Origin: Myxococcota bacterium
GTDB lineage: Bacteria; Myxococcota_A; Polyangia; Polyangiales; Houyiibacteriaceae
Assembly (NCBI GenBank): GCA_048623775.1
Contig: JBMCXW010000005.1
Coordinates: 6,533 to 70,532, forward strand
Reading direction: 5' to 3'
Length of the DNA stretch: 64,000 nt
The notes below the pieces were generated by a model. That model ran no database searches, had not been told where the DNA came from, and was given only the letters and a program-made list of their open reading frames with translations. The first letter of the stretch is position 1. Each line of letters begins with the position of its first letter. Below are positions 6,563 to 12,207 of this stretch, in pieces. The translations under genes were made by a program, and so were the position numbers.

Positions 6563-7675
6563 ATGGCAGATGCGAACCGCGAGAAGGCCCTGAGCCTCGC
6601 CGTCAGCTCCATCGAGAAGACCTACGGCAAGGGCTCCATCATGAAGCTCGGCGACGGCGGGCCCCAGCTCGACGTCCCGGTCATTCCGAGCGGCTCGATC
6701 TCCCTGGACCTCGCCCTGGGGGTCGGGGGGTACCCCCGCGGGCGCATCGTCGAGATCTATGGGCCCGAGTCCGGCGGCAAGACCACCCTCACCCTTCACG
6801 CCATTGCGGAGTGCCAGAAGAAGGGGGGCATCGCGGCCTTCATCGACGCCGAGCACGCCTTGGATCCGACCTACGCCCGCAAGCTGGGCGTCAACGTGGA
6901 CGAGCTCCTGGTCAGCCAGCCCGACCACGGGGAGCAGGCCCTGGAGATCGCGGATACCTTGGTCCGCTCGGGGGCGGTCGACGTCATCGTCATCGACTCG
7001 GTGGCGGCCCTCGTGCCCAAGGCCGAGATCGAGGGCGAGATGGGCGACGTGCAACCCGGTTTGCAGGCGCGTCTCATGAGCCAGGCCCTGCGCAAGCTCA
7101 CCGCCACCGTGCACCGATCGAACACCCTGCTCTTCTTCATCAACCAGCTCCGCATGAAGATCGGGGTGATGTTCGGCAGCCCCGAGACCACCAGCGGGGG
7201 CAATGCCCTCAAGTTCTACGCTTCGCAGCGGCTCGACATCCGGCGCGTGGGCACCCTCAAGCAGGGGGATCAGGCCCACGGCAACCGCGTCCGGGTCAAG
7301 GTGGTCAAGAACAAGATCGCCCCGCCCTTCCAGAAGTGCGAGTTCGACATCCTGTTCGGTCAGGGGATCAGCCGAACCGGGGACGTGCTCGACCTCGGCG
7401 TGGAGGCCGGCTTCGTCGAGAAGTCGGGGGCCTGGTACAGCTACGGCTCGGAGCGCATCGGCCAGGGCCGCGACAACGCGCGGCAGTACCTGGAAGAGCA
7501 TCCGGAGATGCTCGCCGAGATCGAAGGGAAGATCCTCGAGAAGCATGGCCTGCGCCGCACCCCCCCTCCCGGCGCGGAGGAGGCGGACGCCGAGCCGCCC
7601 AAGAACGGCAAAGCCACCGAAGGCAGCGGCAACGGAAGCGGCGGCAAAGGCAAGTCCTCCCGCGCCCGTGCCTAA
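6563..7675 (+). CDS. recA: Recombinase A
   Basis: [56 protein letters not shown]. Strong AGGAGG RBS. Confidence 0.99.
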
Positions 7676-8738
7676 TACCCCCGCCCTGCGTGCGCCGCCG
7701 CCGCTGCCGGTACGGAAAGAGCTTGGGAGCGCACGTGGGAGCCCACGGCGCCCACCGCTTCGCTGGCTCGGCCTCGTGCTGGGGCTGATCGGTTGCGGGG
7801 GGGCGGTGGGCTCGCCGGCTCCCCGGGCCGAGCCGGCCCCCGCGCCCCTCGGGCCACTGGCGCTGCTCGTGCCTTCGCAGGCCCGCTTGGTGGTCGAGGC
7901 CCGGCCGCGTGCGCTTCTGGACGCACCCGCCTTTCGGCGGGCGATCGACGTGGTCGCGCCCCCGGCCCGGCGTGCAGAGGTGGCTCGCCGGACGGGCGTC
8001 GAGGCGACGGGGGTTCGGGAGCTGGTGGTGGCCGAGCTTCCCGGCGGGGGATTCCTCGTGCTCGTGCGGGGGGACCTGGACGCGCCGTCCGTGGTGCGTC
8101 GCATCGCCCGGCGCATGGCGCCGATCGTGGTATCCGCCGACTCCCCCGTCGTGCGCCGGGGCGGCATGGTGGGCCGGGCGCGCCGCGAGGCGATCGCCCT
8201 CCGCGGTGACGTGCTGGCGGTGGCGGGTGGCGAGGGTGCGGAAACGACCGTGGCTGCGCTCGCGCGGCGCGCCCGTGCCCCCGCGGGCGAAGGATTGGAG
8301 CAGGCCGGCGCCCTGGGCGAGGGGCTTCCCCTCGCGCTGCGGGCCGAGTGGGCGGCGGCGCCCCTGCGCCTGCACGCGCCCCGCCCACTCGAGCTCCCGC
8401 CGGGGTCGGGCGCTTCGGTTCTGCTCGCCCGCCAGCGCGCCCTGTGCGTGGCCGTCGCGGCGGAGGACGACGAGCACCTGCGGGTGGCGGTGGACCTCCG
8501 GGGCGAGTTTCCGGAGGGGGCCGAGCAGAACTTCCGCGCGCTCGCCAGCTCATTGGCGGCCTCGGACATGGGGGCGGCGCTGGGGCTCCGCGAGGGCCTC
8601 GCGTCGTTGCGGGTGCAGGCGGAGCAGCGGCGGGTCGTCGTCGGCATGGAGATCCCCGCCCGTACCCTGGCCCGAGGGCTCGTGCTGCTGTTCGGGGCGG
8701 ACGTGCAGGCGGTGCTCGAAGCGGCGGGCCTGGCATAA
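7668..8738 (+). CDS. Hypothetical lipoprotein (start uncertain)
   Basis: Long frame with high-GC coding character. Hydrophobic [11 protein letters not shown] lipobox-like segment. GTG at 7668 overlaps the recA stop. Confidence 0.6.
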
Positions 8739-8775
8739 GCTGCTGAAATCATTCGCTTTGCAAGCCGGGCGTGCG

Positions 8776-8804
8776 TTGACGTGGCGGCCGCCCGGTGGTA
8801 TGGT
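8776..8804 (+). promoter_or_regulatory. Sigma-70-type promoter of carD/cdnL
   Basis: TTGACG-N17-TATGGT, 31 nt upstream of the ATG. Confidence 0.7.
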
Positions 8805-8835
8805 TCGGCCTCCTCCGACCGGAGATCCAGCGCAG

Positions 8836-9318
8836 ATGACCTTCAACGTCGGTGACAAGGCCGTTCACCCCGCGCACGGCGTGGGTGAGATTACGAGCAT
8901 CGAGAACCGTGACATCGCGGGGAACCGCAAGAGCTTCTACATCCTGAAGATCCTCGACAGCGGCATGACCGTCATGGTCCCCACCGACGGTGCCGCGCGG
9001 CTCGGGCTACGCGCCGTGATCTCCAAGAAGGATGCCCAGAAGGTGGTGGCCATCCTCAAGAAGGACGAGGTGGCGGTCACCTCGCAGCCCTGGAACCGTC
9101 GCTACCGCGAGTACACGGAGATGCTCAAGAGCGGCTCGCCCTTCGAGGTCGCCAAGGTCCTGCGCGACCTGTACCGGCTCAAGGGGGACAAGGAGCTCAG
9201 CTTCGGCGAGCGCCGGTTGCTCGACCAGGCCCGCAGCCTGCTGATCACCGAGCTGGCGCTCGCGCGGCGCTGCAAAGAGCAGCGGGTCCAGCAGGAGATC
9301 GAGTCGATCCTGGAATAG
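8836..9318 (+). CDS. carD: CarD/CdnL family RNA polymerase-binding transcription factor
   Basis: FNVGDKAVHPAHGVGEI, VMVPT...GLR.VI, WNRRYREYTEMLKSGS, KELSFGERRLLDQA. At 160 aa with no HMGA domain it is CdnL-type. Confidence 0.95.
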   Translation: MTFNVGDKAVHPAHGVGEITSIENRDIAGNRKSFYILKILDSGMTVMVPTDGAARLGLRAVISKKDAQKVVAILKKDEVAVTSQPWNRRYREYTEMLKSGSPFEVAKVLRDLYRLKGDKELSFGERRLLDQARSLLITELALARRCKEQRVQQEIESILE

Positions 9319-9334
9319 GGCTCTCCGAATCCGC

Positions 9335-9361
9335 GCAACCGCCTCCCGCCTCGCCCGATAA
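9335..9361 (+). promoter_or_regulatory. Putative sigma-28 (FliA/WhiG)-type promoter upstream of the translocon-like operon
   Basis: GCAA-N15-CCCGATAA versus consensus TAAA-N15-GCCGATAA: 7/8 at -10, correct spacing, weak -35. Confidence 0.45.
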
Positions 9362-9377
9362 GACGGGGCGAAGGGAG

Positions 9378-9653
9378 ATGATTGCCGTGGGAGCCAGCGA
9401 GCGACTTCGAGCGCGCACACTCAGGGCGCGCTTCCAGCGTCTCACCCGCGAGCGCGAGGCCCAGGACGCCGCGCTCGCCGCCCTGCGTAGGGAAGCGGAG
9501 GCGATGGGCGAGGCTGCGGTCGCGGATGCCACCGAGCCCTCGGCTCCGGATGTGGCATGCGAGCTGCGCGCGCGCTTCGACGCCTTGTGCGACGAGCCCC
9601 TCCCGTCATGGGGCACCGGCGGCGGAGCACCCGACGAGGGGCTCCGCGCCTGA
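9378..9653 (+). CDS. Small coiled-coil protein, first gene of the translocon-like operon (LcrG-like by position only)
   Basis: About 90 aa helical ORF (RARFQRLTREREAQDAALAALRREAE). The GGGAG RBS fits an alternative GTG start at 9387. Followed 18 nt later by the next gene. Confidence 0.6.
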   Translation: MIAVGASERLRARTLRARFQRLTREREAQDAALAALRREAEAMGEAAVADATEPSAPDVACELRARFDALCDEPLPSWGTGGGAPDEGLRA

Positions 9654-9671
9654 CGAACGAGGAGACCGAGC

Positions 9672-10283
9672 ATGCCCGAGATCGAAGGTCGAGTCCCCCA
9701 TCCCGCCGCGGTTGCGCCCCGTACGATCGACCCGGCGCCCCCGGCCTCCGAGGAGGAGCTTCCGGCAGTTCGAGGCGTGTCGCCGCAGATGGTGCTGCAG
9801 CTCCTGGAGCTGCGGCTGAACGACATGGATACGCAGATGGAGCGCCTGTCGACGGCCACCCTCGATCACACCAACCGGGCGGATGCGCTGTCGCGCCAGA
9901 TCCAAGGGCTCGAAGCCATCAAGACCAAGGCCGACGACAACGGCGGCAAGATCGCCTGGAAGAACGAGTCCTTCAGCGAGGACGATGTCGTGATGGTCGG
10001 CCACAAGACATACGAGTCGGTGTTCGACGCGGCGAAGGACTTGGGGCTCGTCGACAAGCTCGATCCACTCGTGGGCGACGGCAAGCTGAAGAAGAACGAC
10101 CTTTCCGGTGTCATCGAAGAGCTGCGCCAGGCGCTGCAGCGCGAGAACTCGGGCAACGAGCTGAGGATGATGCAGCTGCAGGAGCTCACCCAGCGCCGTT
10201 CGCAGATGATCTCGCTCGCGAGCAACCTGCTGCGCACCCTCCACCAGGCCAACCAAGCGGTGATCCGAAACCTGACGGTGTGA
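9672..10283 (+). CDS. Putative T3SS tip/filament protein (SctA; Bsp22/EspA-like)
   Basis: AGGAGA RBS. The C-terminal helix NELRMMQLQELTQRRSQMISLASNLLRTLHQANQAVIRNL resembles the C-terminal polymerisation helix of Bsp22/EspA-like tip proteins. N-terminal coiled coil, no Sec signal. Confidence 0.6.
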   Translation: MPEIEGRVPHPAAVAPRTIDPAPPASEEELPAVRGVSPQMVLQLLELRLNDMDTQMERLSTATLDHTNRADALSRQIQGLEAIKTKADDNGGKIAWKNESFSEDDVVMVGHKTYESVFDAAKDLGLVDKLDPLVGDGKLKKNDLSGVIEELRQALQRENSGNELRMMQLQELTQRRSQMISLASNLLRTLHQANQAVIRNLTV

Positions 10284-10285
10284 CG

Positions 10286-10555
10286 ATGGAGAGGGACCTC
10301 GAAGCCACCCCCGAATCGGGCGTCGAGCGGTGCGCGCTTTCCGAGGTGCAGCGCAGCGCGCTCCTGCGGCATGCGACGGCCGAGCTCGACGCCGGCCACC
10401 TGCACGCGGCCCTCGACGCCGCTCGAACGCTGACGGCCCTCGACCCCCTCTTCACACGCGGCTGGCGGCTCCTGGAGAAGGTGCACCGGCGCGCGGGGAA
10501 GGAGGCCGAGGCGCAGATGGCGGCGGAGGTCGCCGAAGCATTGGAGGCGGTATGA
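10286..10555 (+). CDS. Short TPR protein, putative class II translocator chaperone (SycD/LcrH-like)
   Basis: ALLRHATAELDAGHLHAALDAARTLTALDPLFTRGWRLLEKVHRRAG is a TPR pair like SycD TPR1-2. Translationally coupled (ATGA) to the next gene. Confidence 0.6.
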   Translation: MERDLEATPESGVERCALSEVQRSALLRHATAELDAGHLHAALDAARTLTALDPLFTRGWRLLEKVHRRAGKEAEAQMAAEVAEALEAV

Positions 10556-11481
10556 ACGCGACGGAGATTGGAGACACGAGGGTGGCGGCACGGGCCGTCA
10601 CCGAACTGGGGCCGGCCGCCACGGCACGAGATCCGGAGACGCCGCAGCCGGAGCCCCTGCTGGCGTTGGCCATGGACGGGCCGCCGCCCCAGGGTGGCGC
10701 GCCCTCGGCCTCCGGGACGGACGCGGCCGCCGTGGCGGACTTGCTCGGGCGCTTCGGTCCCGAGCTTTTGGTCGCGGCCCTGCAGATGGAGACGCGGGAC
10801 GCCCAGGCCGGCGTGCACGGCAAGAGCGTCGAGGCTGCCGAGGCGCGCGGCGAGCTGGCGGAGAAGGAGCGTCAGGAAGCCATCGAAGCCGCGCGCAAGG
10901 CCGCCAAGAAGGCCAGCGGGATCTTCGGCCTCAAGGGCCCGATCGCCAAGCTCGTCAAGGCGGTGGTGACCGTCGCGGCCACCGCGGCGTCCGCCCTGAG
11001 CGGTGGCACGCTGGCCGGTCTCGCCATCGCCGGTGCGGCGCTCATGCTCGCGGCGGGGCCCGTCTGCAAGGGGCTCGTGAAGTCGGGCATCCTGAACGAG
11101 AAGCAGGCGAAGTGGGTGTCGCTCGGGATCCAGCTCGCGGGCATGCTGCTCAGCGGCGGGGCCGGGCTGGCGCAGCTCGGCAACCCCCAGACCATCGCCA
11201 GCCTCGCCAAGACGGTGGCGCAGGTCGTTCAGGGGGCGGGTCAGGTGGCCCAGGGGGCGCTGCAGGTGCGCGACGGGGTGTTTCAACGCCGCCACGCGGG
11301 CGCCATGGCCGATGCGGAGGCGGCGAAGCTCGATTCGGACGCCTCGGGGGAGGCCATGAACGAGGCCATCGCGCAGCTCGAGGATCTCTTCGAGACCTTC
11401 CAGCGCGTGCAGCAGCGTTTGCGCGTGGGATTGGACGTCCAGCACGAGGCGCGGCTCGCGGCGACTCAAGCACGAGCCTGA
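10552..11481 (+). CDS. Putative T3SS major translocator (SctE; YopB/IpaB/BopB-like)
   Basis: Coiled coil ending ARKAAKKASGIFG, then long hydrophobic segments (IAKLVKAVVTVAATAASALSGGTLAGLAIAGAALMLAAG; WVSLGIQLAGMLLSGGAG), then a C-terminal coiled coil. No Sec signal. Confidence 0.7.
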   Translation: MNATEIGDTRVAARAVTELGPAATARDPETPQPEPLLALAMDGPPPQGGAPSASGTDAAAVADLLGRFGPELLVAALQMETRDAQAGVHGKSVEAAEARGELAEKERQEAIEAARKAAKKASGIFGLKGPIAKLVKAVVTVAATAASALSGGTLAGLAIAGAALMLAAGPVCKGLVKSGILNEKQAKWVSLGIQLAGMLLSGGAGLAQLGNPQTIASLAKTVAQVVQGAGQVAQGALQVRDGVFQRRHAGAMADAEAAKLDSDASGEAMNEAIAQLEDLFETFQRVQQRLRVGLDVQHEARLAATQARA

Positions 11482-11496
11482 GCAGAAGGAGGAGCC

Positions 11497-12150
11497 ATGA
11501 GTGAAGCGATCGCGAGCACGGGAAGCGGCATCCAGACCGAGGGGACGACCGAGGCCTCGCTGGAAGCGCAGGCCCAGTCCCTCGCCCGTTTCGGTAACGC
11601 CGAGGCGGCCATCGCGCGGGCGAGCGTGTCGCTCGACCAGCAGCAGCGGCGGGCGGAGGAGAGCCGTCGAGAGGCGCAGGAGCAGGCCCGCGAGCAGGCC
11701 CTCGAACGCATCGAGGACCTGCGGCGCGCCGCGCGGCGACGCCTGGCGAGCGGCGTGATCCAGGCCGGCGCCAACGTCGTCGCCGGTGCGGTGGCCATCG
11801 GATCGGCGGGGGTGTCGGCCGGCGGTTCCCAGGCGCCTTCCGGCTCCACGGGGGCCCATTCGGGCGCGTCACCCTGCGGTGACCTGGGAGCGGCCCAGGT
11901 GCGTCAGGGCTGGGTCGCCGTGGGGGAGGGGCTGCTCGAGATCGGCACCGCCGCCCTGGATGCGTCGGCCGAGCGGGCGCAGGCCGACGCGGAGCGCCAT
12001 CAGGTGGCGGCGCAGGCCCACGGCGATGAGCAGGAGGCGGCGGCGGACGCCGGAGAGGCGGCCCGCTCGCAGCGGGATCGCGCGTCGGCCAGATTCGACG
12101 CCGTGAGCCGTGCGAGGGCGCAGGCGCGTCTCGCGGCGCTGCGGGGCTGA
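11497..12150 (+). CDS. Putative T3SS minor translocator (SctB; YopD/IpaC/BopD-like)
   Basis: AAGGAGGAG RBS. N-terminal coiled coil (RREAQEQAREQALERIEDLRRAA), one hydrophobic segment (LASGVIQAGANVVAGAVAIGSAGV), Ala/Gln-rich C-terminal helix. Directly follows the SctE-like gene. Confidence 0.6.
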   Translation: MSEAIASTGSGIQTEGTTEASLEAQAQSLARFGNAEAAIARASVSLDQQQRRAEESRREAQEQAREQALERIEDLRRAARRRLASGVIQAGANVVAGAVAIGSAGVSAGGSQAPSGSTGAHSGASPCGDLGAAQVRQGWVAVGEGLLEIGTAALDASAERAQADAERHQVAAQAHGDEQEAAADAGEAARSQRDRASARFDAVSRARAQARLAALRG

Positions 12151-12207
12151 GCACGGGGAGCGCGCGGGCCCTTGCCGGGGTGCTGGCCCGCGCGCTACGC
12201 ACCTTGC

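Follow-up and report, generated by a model that had tools for sequence, protein, structure and literature searches.

The 64-kb window analyzed here (the whole stretch of 64,000 nucleotides, contig C5:6533-70532) belongs to the genome of a myxobacterium of the Sandaracinaceae type whose source is a microbial mat or a hypersaline lake. The assembly (G000) comprises 3.1 Mb in 165 contigs and is 66% complete, and a single study accounts for the metagenomes in which the DNA of the region is present, three DNA runs from microbial mats and hypersaline lakes. Our subject is a group of five plus-strand open reading frames (ORFs), tightly packed at 9378-12150 and flanked by carD and hisIE in the ORF listing, which we read as a probable needle/translocon module of a secretion system of type III (T3SS). 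ORF1 (9378-9653) encodes 91 amino acids, or possibly 88 from GTG 9387, a start that is better spaced from an AGGGAG box than ATG 9378. It is followed by ORF2 (9672-10283, 203 amino acids), a needle/filament-like protein; ORF3 (10286-10555, 89 amino acids, within a longer open frame), a TPR protein and candidate secretion chaperone; ORF4 (10552-11481, 309 amino acids), a putative SctE-like major translocator of the SseC family; and ORF5 (11497-12150, 217 amino acids), an SctB-like minor translocator candidate. The gaps from ORF1 to ORF5 are 18, 2, -4 and 15 nucleotides, the -4 being an ATGA overlap between ORF3 and ORF4, and they reproduce exactly those given in the original prediction, which had described five coupled ORFs between carD and hisIE. 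The carD (cdnL) gene ends at 9318, hisIE begins at about 12.2 kb and recA is located further upstream. The start that was first assigned to the feature, 9335, falls inside the carD-ORF1 spacer, as the first start codon of ORF1 is ATG 9378, while the assigned end at 12150 is right. The strong ribosome-binding sites that had been claimed were located as boxes before ORF1 and ORF2, the latter a Shine-Dalgarno sequence GAGGAG 7 nucleotides upstream of the ORF2 ATG.

The five ORFs are real genes. Their third-position GC is 0.80-0.90, compared with 0.92 in recA and 0.89 in hisIE, and the possibility of chance ORFs was ruled out by this codon bias and by conservation. The GC content of the region, 0.67-0.76, is similar to that of the flanks. 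A promoter scan gave a sigma-70-like site upstream of carD only, and a site scan of the region found no terminator-like site on the plus strand; the operon may therefore be transcribed through from carD or by another promoter type. ORF2, ORF4 and ORF5 have no hydrophobic stretch within their first 40 residues, in agreement with the predicted lack of a Sec signal. An NCBIfam scan of the five proteins gave nothing useful.

The protein that is assigned most firmly is ORF4. It scores 34.6 bits against the SseC family (PF04888), above the gathering cut-off of 30.2 (E=2.1e-8), and the same family is matched at E<=0.01 by 7 of 20 ORF4 homologues, with a best value of 4e-10. A hydrophobic region of 19-50 residues, at about residues 100-230, was found in all 20 homologues (at least 37 residues in 16 of them), and a second hydrophobic region is kept in most. 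The AlphaFold2 model, which has a predicted local distance difference test (pLDDT) score of 67.6, contains helices at 58-124, 130-148, 155-177, 183-202 and 212-308, and thus the layout of a long helix, three hydrophobic helices (a hairpin and a third) and another long helix. By hhalign the coiled coil and hydrophobic hairpin align with residues 153-244 of EspD (P=2.6e-3). Comparison of the ORF4 profile with PDB sequences gave no translocator, the best match being a designed TIM barrel (E=0.0016) on a repeat, and a word-indexed homologue search with the ORF4 alignment returned only four matches from a list that was dominated by low-complexity candidates. Judged by its family score, ORF4 is an SseC-family member and SctE-like, with putative export and pore formation; its earlier description as a YopB-like translocon protein agrees with the SseC score and the retained hydrophobic hairpin.

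ORF5 is, weakly, a minor translocator candidate from its sequence features. It has a coiled coil, a moderately hydrophobic Ala/Gly-rich segment (83-101), another coiled coil and a C-terminal LRG. The first coiled coil and the hydrophobic segment align with EspB 76-121 (hhalign P=4e-4), and the nearest clusters in the ESM Atlas carry PF05802 SctB2 (on 21% and 16% of their members), YopD and IpaC_SipC. ORF5 itself has no Pfam match to SctB2 (PF05802) or YopD (PF05844); SctB2 appears at E<=1 in 3 of 19 homologues, at best with 0.022. The likeness to YopD that had been proposed is therefore retained as a weak lead to minor translocators, at scores below any family cut-off. The conservation expected of the hydrophobic segments was seen in all 20 ORF4 homologues and only in part for ORF5, where the segment (approximately residues 75-125) passes a Kyte-Doolittle value of 1.5 in 7 of 19 homologues and is Ala/Gly/Ser-rich and below this threshold in the others. 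The ORF5 homologues share the conserved C-terminal ...LRG (window positions 12142-12150). It was also observed that the C-terminal halves of ORF4 and ORF5 are weakly related, in that the ORF4 profile matches the C-terminal half of ORF5 (11779-12153) and that the ORF5 profile matches ORF4 homologues (E 1e-3 to 1e-7); because the profiles match each other, ORF4 and ORF5 may be distant paralogues.

SctF needle subunits are small helix-turn-helix proteins of about 70-90 amino acids. With 203 amino acids ORF2 is larger than such a subunit, and its homologues have 198-321. Its AlphaFold2 model (pLDDT 85.9) shows two long antiparallel helices (38-89 and 141-202), a small inserted domain and an N-terminal tail of 37 residues, and in the alignment of the family the conserved portion is the C-terminal helix. 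A long antiparallel coiled coil with an inserted or appended domain is also the layout of SctA filament/tip proteins, to which the model may correspond. Residues 149-200 of ORF2 were aligned to positions 17-70 of the 71-position Pfam model T3SS_needle_F (PF09392), with E=0.27 and 11.9 bits, below the gathering score of 29.4. The same family was found at E<=1 in 5 of 10 close homologues and at E<=0.01 in 45 of 150 library representatives of ORF2 (best 4.8e-7). Among the 25 of 42 Pfam families listed for these representatives the next family occurs in only 2 of 150, so the needle family alone is recurrent, and EspA (PF03433) and LcrV (PF04792) are absent at E<=0.01. The best match of the ORF2 profile among PDB sequences is chain F of 7y6c (43 residues, E=0.024). 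By hhalign, the C-terminal helix aligns with residues 36-68 of EscF (P=1.3e-3), and no alignment was obtained with EspA. In the ESM Atlas, EspA is carried by 12% of members in 5 of the 30 neighbour clusters of ORF2 and LcrV (PF04792) by 12% in one of the 30. A PF09392 scan of 41 genomes gave matches in six, none of the 41 above the cut-off, and every match was an ORF2 homologue; no separate needle gene is therefore seen in these genomes. Based on these alignments, ORF2 resembles an oversized needle/filament subunit more than a tip protein of the V type. This departs from the original prediction, which had likened the operon to lcrGVH-yopBD: neither ORF1 nor ORF2 has a detectable membership in the LcrG or LcrV family.

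The ORF2 family is large: compared with 1.84 billion representatives, the profile finds 4132 clusters at a threshold of E<=1e-3 and 1252 at the stricter E<=1e-10, and for the 10 clusters that were looked up every name given by the source was 'hypothetical protein'. The homologues end in ...RN[IML]x. In three relatives' loci (L019:6901-7644, L020:9214-9948 and L035:4755-5474) ORF2 has a longer helical N-terminal extension and a separate ORF1 was not detected, and from the sequences the extension could be a fused or replaced ORF1. Weak additional matches to the ORF2 profile (E about 2e-3), covering only its last 40-60 positions, are found elsewhere in five relatives (G012:C35:639215-639388, G014:C46:31089-31211, G024:C98:2435-2566, G032:C190:35650-35772 and G013:C40:53622-53744); these may be other proteins of the needle or rod kind, or arise by chance.

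The two small proteins of the operon are candidate chaperones. ORF1 is helical, and an alignment of 12 homologues shows a conserved N-terminal motif, R..L....EL.RQD.EL, and a conserved C-terminal LRA (9645-9653). No known or recurrent Pfam family was found in ORF1 and its homologues, and the suggestion that it is a small co-chaperone or regulator of ORF2 is a guess. Class II chaperones such as LcrH, SycD and CesD have about 150-170 amino acids and three TPR-like repeats. ORF3 has the all-TPR fold of this class at about half the LcrH-class length: TPR_16 was matched in 7 of 10 homologues (best 2.1e-9), whose lengths are 65-89 amino acids, and hhalign aligned ORF3 with CesD over 67 columns (P=0.038) and gave no alignment with CesD2 or EscG. 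The likeness to LcrH proposed earlier can thus be kept for the TPR character of ORF3 and not for its size. A complex prediction of ORF3, ORF1 and residues 135-203 of ORF2 gave a median score of 0.35 (0.53, 0.01 and 0.35) against 0.01 for the best control, a result classed as 'weak support'; of 80 solved complexes 58 attain this mark, as do 2 of 110 mismatched pairs. At least 5% of contacts are common to the runs, with a partner pLDDT of 46 or more; the model's memory of solved needle-chaperone complexes may account for the pass. Together, the work-alike assignments of ORF2, ORF3 and ORF5 are concordant with the family membership of ORF4 but weaker than it.

The arrangement is conserved in relatives. 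In 14 loci of relatives, which were fetched because they have an ORF4 match, hmmsearch found ORF2, ORF4 and ORF5 in all 14, ORF1 in 11 and ORF3 in 9; hisIE is adjacent in all 14 and recA lies upstream in 10. The synteny of ORF2, ORF4 and ORF5 extends over four of the order's families, in which the proteins are 20-35% identical and the hydrophobic and C-terminal motifs are conserved. Among 40 relatives, 23 have a match to the ORF4 sequence and 27 to the ORF2 profile. In a sample of 300 genomes from the phylum, the ORF4 profile matched 17, all of the same family or order. With the ORF2 profile, matches were mostly near-full-length in 19 genomes that belong to this family or order, and 14 from other parts of the phylum gave only partial matches, chiefly to the C-terminal helix. 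The six loci of the six-sequence ORF4 alignment come from metagenome-assembled genomes labelled 'Sandaracinaceae', 'Myxococcales' and 'Deltaproteobacteria bacterium'. Judged by these profile matches, the module is confined to one Myxococcota order (Sandaracinaceae and kin). The native composition, long residence and myxobacterial origin that had been predicted for the operon agree with a GC content like that of the flanks, with the constant position beside hisIE and with matches that stay within the order, and the survey of relatives that had been proposed as a check gave the expected synteny. Outside this order, one locus of another Myxococcota family (L061, G206:C1:216000-234000, in a complete genome of 5.85 Mb) has two tandem coiled-coil proteins of ~280 amino acids with a needle-like C-terminus (7616-8440 and 8458-9330), followed by a TPR protein of 116 amino acids (9333-9683). 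This group adjoins uvrD-like and DHDPS genes and has no SseC-like gene beside it.

It had been proposed that the operon is detached from any export apparatus, and within the 64-kb window no sctN, sctR, sctU or sctV was found. The operon is an orphan only locally, as the genome encodes all four on other contigs: sctV at C68:~170-2131, at the contig start and followed by unrelated genes; sctU at C78:6732-7736, between priA-like and aminotransferase-like genes; sctR at C32:6650-7267, with unrelated genes on both sides; and sctN at C25:10078-11349, in housekeeping surroundings. These solitary core genes are full-length and have strong scores. The same dispersal can be followed along the single 9.07-Mb contig of a relative, G011, where sctU is located at 437,907, sctT at 478,165, sctR at 915,649, sctN at 2,586,453, sctQ at 4,841,308, the module at about 5,065,000, sctV at 5,652,361 and sctJ at 8,328,903. 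The core genes of this genome are 0.04-2.7 Mb apart and do not form the cluster of an injectisome. All of sctN, sctQ, sctR, sctT, sctU, sctV and sctJ are present in G010, G011, G012 and G029, with a similar dispersal. Only in one relative, G005, does sctV lie near the module, at 1.9 kb. An apparatus encoded elsewhere and acting in trans, as had been proposed, fits these data, but the apparatus is not merely elsewhere: it is split up gene by gene, and in the genomes searched neither a secretin nor a gatekeeper specific to T3SS was found alongside it.

Two outer-membrane candidates were seen near these genes. Beside sctV in G000, C68:2298-3176 encodes a protein with a signal peptide and an aromatic C-terminal residue, probably an outer-membrane beta-barrel, and between sctV and the module of G005 (L022:5259-6557) there is another putative outer-membrane protein. 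The idea of a conserved outer-membrane partner linked to sctV was dropped, as the two proteins are unrelated by BLASTP. Some relatives also have a clustered flagellar-type export locus (G011:C1:5,592,928-5,609,561 and G029:C8:90,824-107,940), with a FliF-sized gene, fliI, fliM/N, fliP, fliR, flhB and flhA, and the FlhA of this locus groups with that of E. coli.

For a wider view of the solitary sctV, 33 sctV/flhA loci were fetched from the phylum. In 16 loci of the G000-like type (families f1, f6, f16, f17, f18, f26, f42 and f58) sctV has no further core gene within roughly 9 kb; in 14 other sctV/flhA loci sctR, S, T or U lies at most 9 kb from sctV, and in 13 of them it adjoins. An unrooted IQ-TREE phylogeny of 42 SctV/FlhA sequences contains a split that holds six injectisome references and one long-branch FlhA (support 100/99) and another that unites 17 Myxococcota sequences with E. 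coli FlhA (100/100, on a branch of length 1.02). The 17 G000-like solitary SctVs are placed between both splits and inside neither of them in this unrooted tree, and the subclade of the window's own order has a support of 99/94. Counted by family, the solitary type of sctV is present in eight or more within the phylum. Families f18, f26, f42 and f58 have the solitary sctV, and f26 was also seen to have a pair of needle-like and TPR genes.

The distribution of the module was compared with that of the apparatus genes in the 41 genomes. The module, counted as an ORF2 or ORF4 match, is present in 29, and 26 of these have a short SctJ-type gene, where SctJ was told from FliF by score and ORF length according to our own criterion; the three others are 66%, 92% and 70% complete. 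Genus g2 has neither the module (0 of 14) nor an FHIPEP gene (0 of 14). No module was seen in genomes that lack FHIPEP, except in G022, which has sctR, sctU and sctJ. In G010 and G012 the module occurs with a single FHIPEP gene of the solitary type, and G002, where no module was seen, has FHIPEP and FliF matches that score high and are flagellar in type.

Based on these results, we suggest that the operon is a T3SS needle/translocon module that is served in trans by a scattered apparatus, a reading to which we give a probability of about 65%. It appears to be a stand-alone needle/translocon operon that is served, if at all, by an atomised T3SS apparently without secretin and gatekeeper. In a possible mechanism, ORF3 and perhaps ORF1 would prevent ORF2, the translocators or both from polymerising while in the cytoplasm. 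Export of the module would take place in trans, through the products of sctV, sctU, sctR and sctN (in relatives also sctT, sctQ and sctJ), which are scattered as solitary genes. ORF2 would then polymerise through its needle-like C-terminal helix into a needle, a filament or a distal sheath, and the SctE-like ORF4 and the SctB-like ORF5 would be exported through this structure and insert in the target membrane as a pore. The target may be a prey bacterium or a protist. The analysis shows how the genes are built, that ORF4 belongs to the SseC family, the modelled fold of ORF2, the TPR character of ORF3, the conservation and synteny, and that core genes exist and are scattered; secretion by the scattered apparatus, polymerisation, pore formation and the target are what we infer.

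Several observations weigh against this reading. ORF1, ORF2 and ORF5 reach no curated family cut-off. The Foldseek search with the ORF2 model is unspecific: the top rows are IpaD, SipD and LcrV with E values of 0.08-1.4, and these tip-protein rows have a template modelling (TM) score of about 0.3 and a root mean square deviation (rmsd) around 17 Å. VIA-align gave Z scores of 10-12.7 for ORF2, with IpaB (12.7) tied with generic coiled-coil hairpins (PspA, Vipp1, ESCRT-III and prefoldin; Z 10-12). For the ORF4 model Foldseek found nothing at E<=0.001, its top rows being ribosomal protein S20 and similar proteins. The structural searches proposed as a check of the original prediction have therefore provided no specific fold match. 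In the lookup of sequencing runs no RNA run is listed for the region. In the 66%-complete G000 genome sctJ, sctT and sctQ were not found. The secretin family TIGR02516 (SctC) and the gatekeeper family SctW/HrpJ (PF07201) are above the cut-off in none of the 41 genomes, where divergent forms are possible, and the secretins that were found also occur in genomes without any FHIPEP. As neither SctC nor SctW was found in these genomes, any passage of a needle across the outer membrane is hypothetical. The SctJ-type gene is also present in 6 of the 12 genomes that have no module and absent from the other 6. Finally, the co-occurrence counts overstate the link, because related genomes are not independent, and they can be taken as supportive only.

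One other explanation keeps closer to the first assignment of the genes: ORF1 would be an LcrG-like plug, ORF2 a tip protein of the LcrV/IpaD type on a separate, unrecognised needle and ORF3 a chaperone of the LcrH type. The gene order is the same as in lcrG-lcrV-lcrH-yopB-yopD, the tip proteins IpaD, SipD and LcrV do head the Foldseek rows of ORF2, though with the high E values given above, and LcrV is carried by 12% of the members of one ESM Atlas neighbour. Yet the geometry of those Foldseek rows is poor, neither ORF1 and ORF2 nor their homologues gave a Pfam match to LcrV, LcrG or EspA, the 41 genomes yielded no separate needle gene and the conserved part of ORF2 is precisely its needle-like C-terminal helix. 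In addition, ORF3, at 81-89 amino acids, has about half the size of the LcrH class and is missing from 5 of the 14 loci. We consider this explanation unlikely. To a module that has nothing to do with T3SS, such as a PspA/ESCRT-III-like system of envelope remodelling or stress, or proteins exported by Tad or type IV pilus machinery, one may be led by the VIA-align scores, in which ORF2 fits PspA, Vipp1, ESCRT-III and prefoldin about as well as IpaB. The housekeeping neighbourhood (recA-carD ... hisIE), the failure to find a T3SS secretin and gatekeeper in the 41 genomes and the lack of linkage between core genes and module in all relatives but G005 point in the same direction. Such an origin would leave unexplained why ORF4 exceeds the SseC cut-off, why Needle_F is the sole recurrent family among the relatives of ORF2 and why ORF5 leads to SctB families; moreover, the module was not seen without FHIPEP, bar G022 with its sctR, sctU and sctJ, and genus g2 lacks both. 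This possibility, too, seems improbable to us.

The dispersed apparatus genes and the missing secretin and gatekeeper may also be taken as signs of decay, so that the operon would be the relic of a once-complete injectisome, or they may mean that the module now serves the clustered flagellar-type locus that some relatives have (for example, at 5.593-5.610 Mb in G011). However, a relic would hardly keep five intact frames with native codon bias, the synteny of ORF2, ORF4 and ORF5 in four families at 20-35% identity with conserved motifs, and solitary core genes that are full-length and score strongly. As for a flagellar-type partner, the module is found in G010 and G012 with one FHIPEP of the solitary type and was not seen in G002, where the type is flagellar. 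We regard both variants as very improbable, and we retain the needle/translocon module with a scattered apparatus as the preferred explanation.

A broader proposal, which we make tentatively and regard as rather doubtful, is that this is a T3SS of a new design, widespread and vertically inherited in Myxococcota, with every core gene solitary in housekeeping surroundings, no dedicated secretin or gatekeeper, an enlarged needle-family filament and a two-protein translocon. Its scope would be the full module in Sandaracinaceae and sister families and the solitary sctV also in at least four further families (f18, f26, f42 and f58). Myxobacterial T3SSs are cited as an early injectisome stage without secretin, needle and translocon (PMC3459982; PMC12075869). 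If the solitary SctV really stands between FlhA and the classical injectisomes, needle and translocon would pre-date the recruitment of the secretin. In that event, needle-like partners of the 'needleless' myxobacterial T3SSs may have escaped notice, and prey bacteria or protists may be injected by the system. The operon itself is relevant to the sequence in which needle, translocon and secretin were gained. Beside hisIE, a large order of myxobacteria retains a needle-like protein together with a translocator of the SseC family, with its export genes dispersed singly; detection methods that require gene clustering would probably miss such a system. These proteins are concrete candidates for how the secretin-less T3SS of a predator reaches its target membrane.

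The order of the genes is that of a filament/translocon operon, as had been predicted, and it can be compared with several known systems. Yersinia and Pseudomonas have yscE-yscF-yscG, which encode the needle and two co-chaperones, and the lcrGVH-yopBD operon. ORF1-ORF2-ORF3 resembles the former in that a needle-type subunit stands between a small helical protein and a small one of the TPR-like kind, and ORF4 and ORF5 are placed like YopB and YopD. Unlike in yscEFG, ORF2 has 203 amino acids and an inserted domain, ORF1 and ORF3 are absent from some relatives' loci, and no Pfam match to the YscE, YscG, LcrG or LcrV families was found among ORF1-ORF3. In the LEE4 operon espA-espD-espB of the locus of enterocyte effacement (LEE) of EPEC and EHEC, a filament protein is likewise followed by a major and a minor translocator, and hhalign with the LEE4 proteins of E. 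coli O157:H7 Sakai places ORF2, ORF4 and ORF5 on EscF, EspD and EspB in alignments that are weak but agree in topology. The LEE differs in that its needle has a gene of its own, escF, and in having the gatekeeper gene sepL and the secretin gene escC; counterparts of the three were not found in the 41 genomes of this lineage.

The closest layout is that of Salmonella pathogenicity island 2 (SPI-2), where the order is sseA-sseB-sscA-sseC-sseD. Both operons follow the same five steps, namely a small helical chaperone, a filament or sheath protein of ~200 amino acids, a TPR chaperone, a major translocator and a minor translocator (~200 amino acids). ORF4 belongs to the family named for SseC, the ESM clusters of ORF5 carry PF05802, the SctB family of SPI-2, and the best PDB match of ORF2, 7y6c, is a needle/co-chaperone entry. 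The differences are that ORF1, ORF2 and ORF3 have no detectable membership in the SseA, SseB/EspA and SscA families, that ORF3 is about half-size and that ORF4, with 309 amino acids, is shorter than SseC. In addition, the SPI-2 genes lie inside a complete clustered island with a secretin, whereas the myxobacterial operon stands alone and its apparatus genes are solitary.

The spreading of T3SS genes as such is known from Chlamydiae, in which the genes of the non-flagellar T3SS are reported to be spread over several loci (PMC3459982). These are at least four multi-gene loci, with secretin and needle; here, the core genes examined, four in G000 and seven in G011, stand alone. For the phylum itself, Abby and Rocha (2012) report a clustered 'Myxo' non-flagellar T3SS only in Cystobacterineae, without secretin, SctF, tip and translocon, and note that tip and translocon could have been missed (PMC3459982). 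In Herrou et al., the T3SS* of Myxococcus is described as needleless and treated as a partner of the Kil pilus in predation (PMC12075869). Other papers state that T3SSs occur mainly in Myxococcales genomes and are degenerate (PMC10196010), and that FliO is present in both Myxococcus T3SSs (PMC12403147). In the full-text literature we found no needle, translocon operon or scattered T3SS described for Polyangia or Sandaracinaceae, though the supplementary tables of PMC10196010, PMC11509652 and PMC3459982 may hold such rows. The present system is like those of Myxococcus in belonging to the same phylum, in that a secretin was not found and in that vertical inheritance and function, which have been argued for the 'Myxo' and Myxococcus systems (PMC3459982; PMC12075869), would apply here too. 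It differs from them in the position of its solitary SctV, which in our tree falls neither in the clade where the clustered Myxococcota loci join E. coli FlhA (100/100) nor in that of the six injectisome references (100/99). It also differs in its design: the Myxococcus systems are reported as clustered and without needle, tip or translocon, while here the core genes are solitary and are accompanied by an operon for a needle-like protein and candidate translocators.

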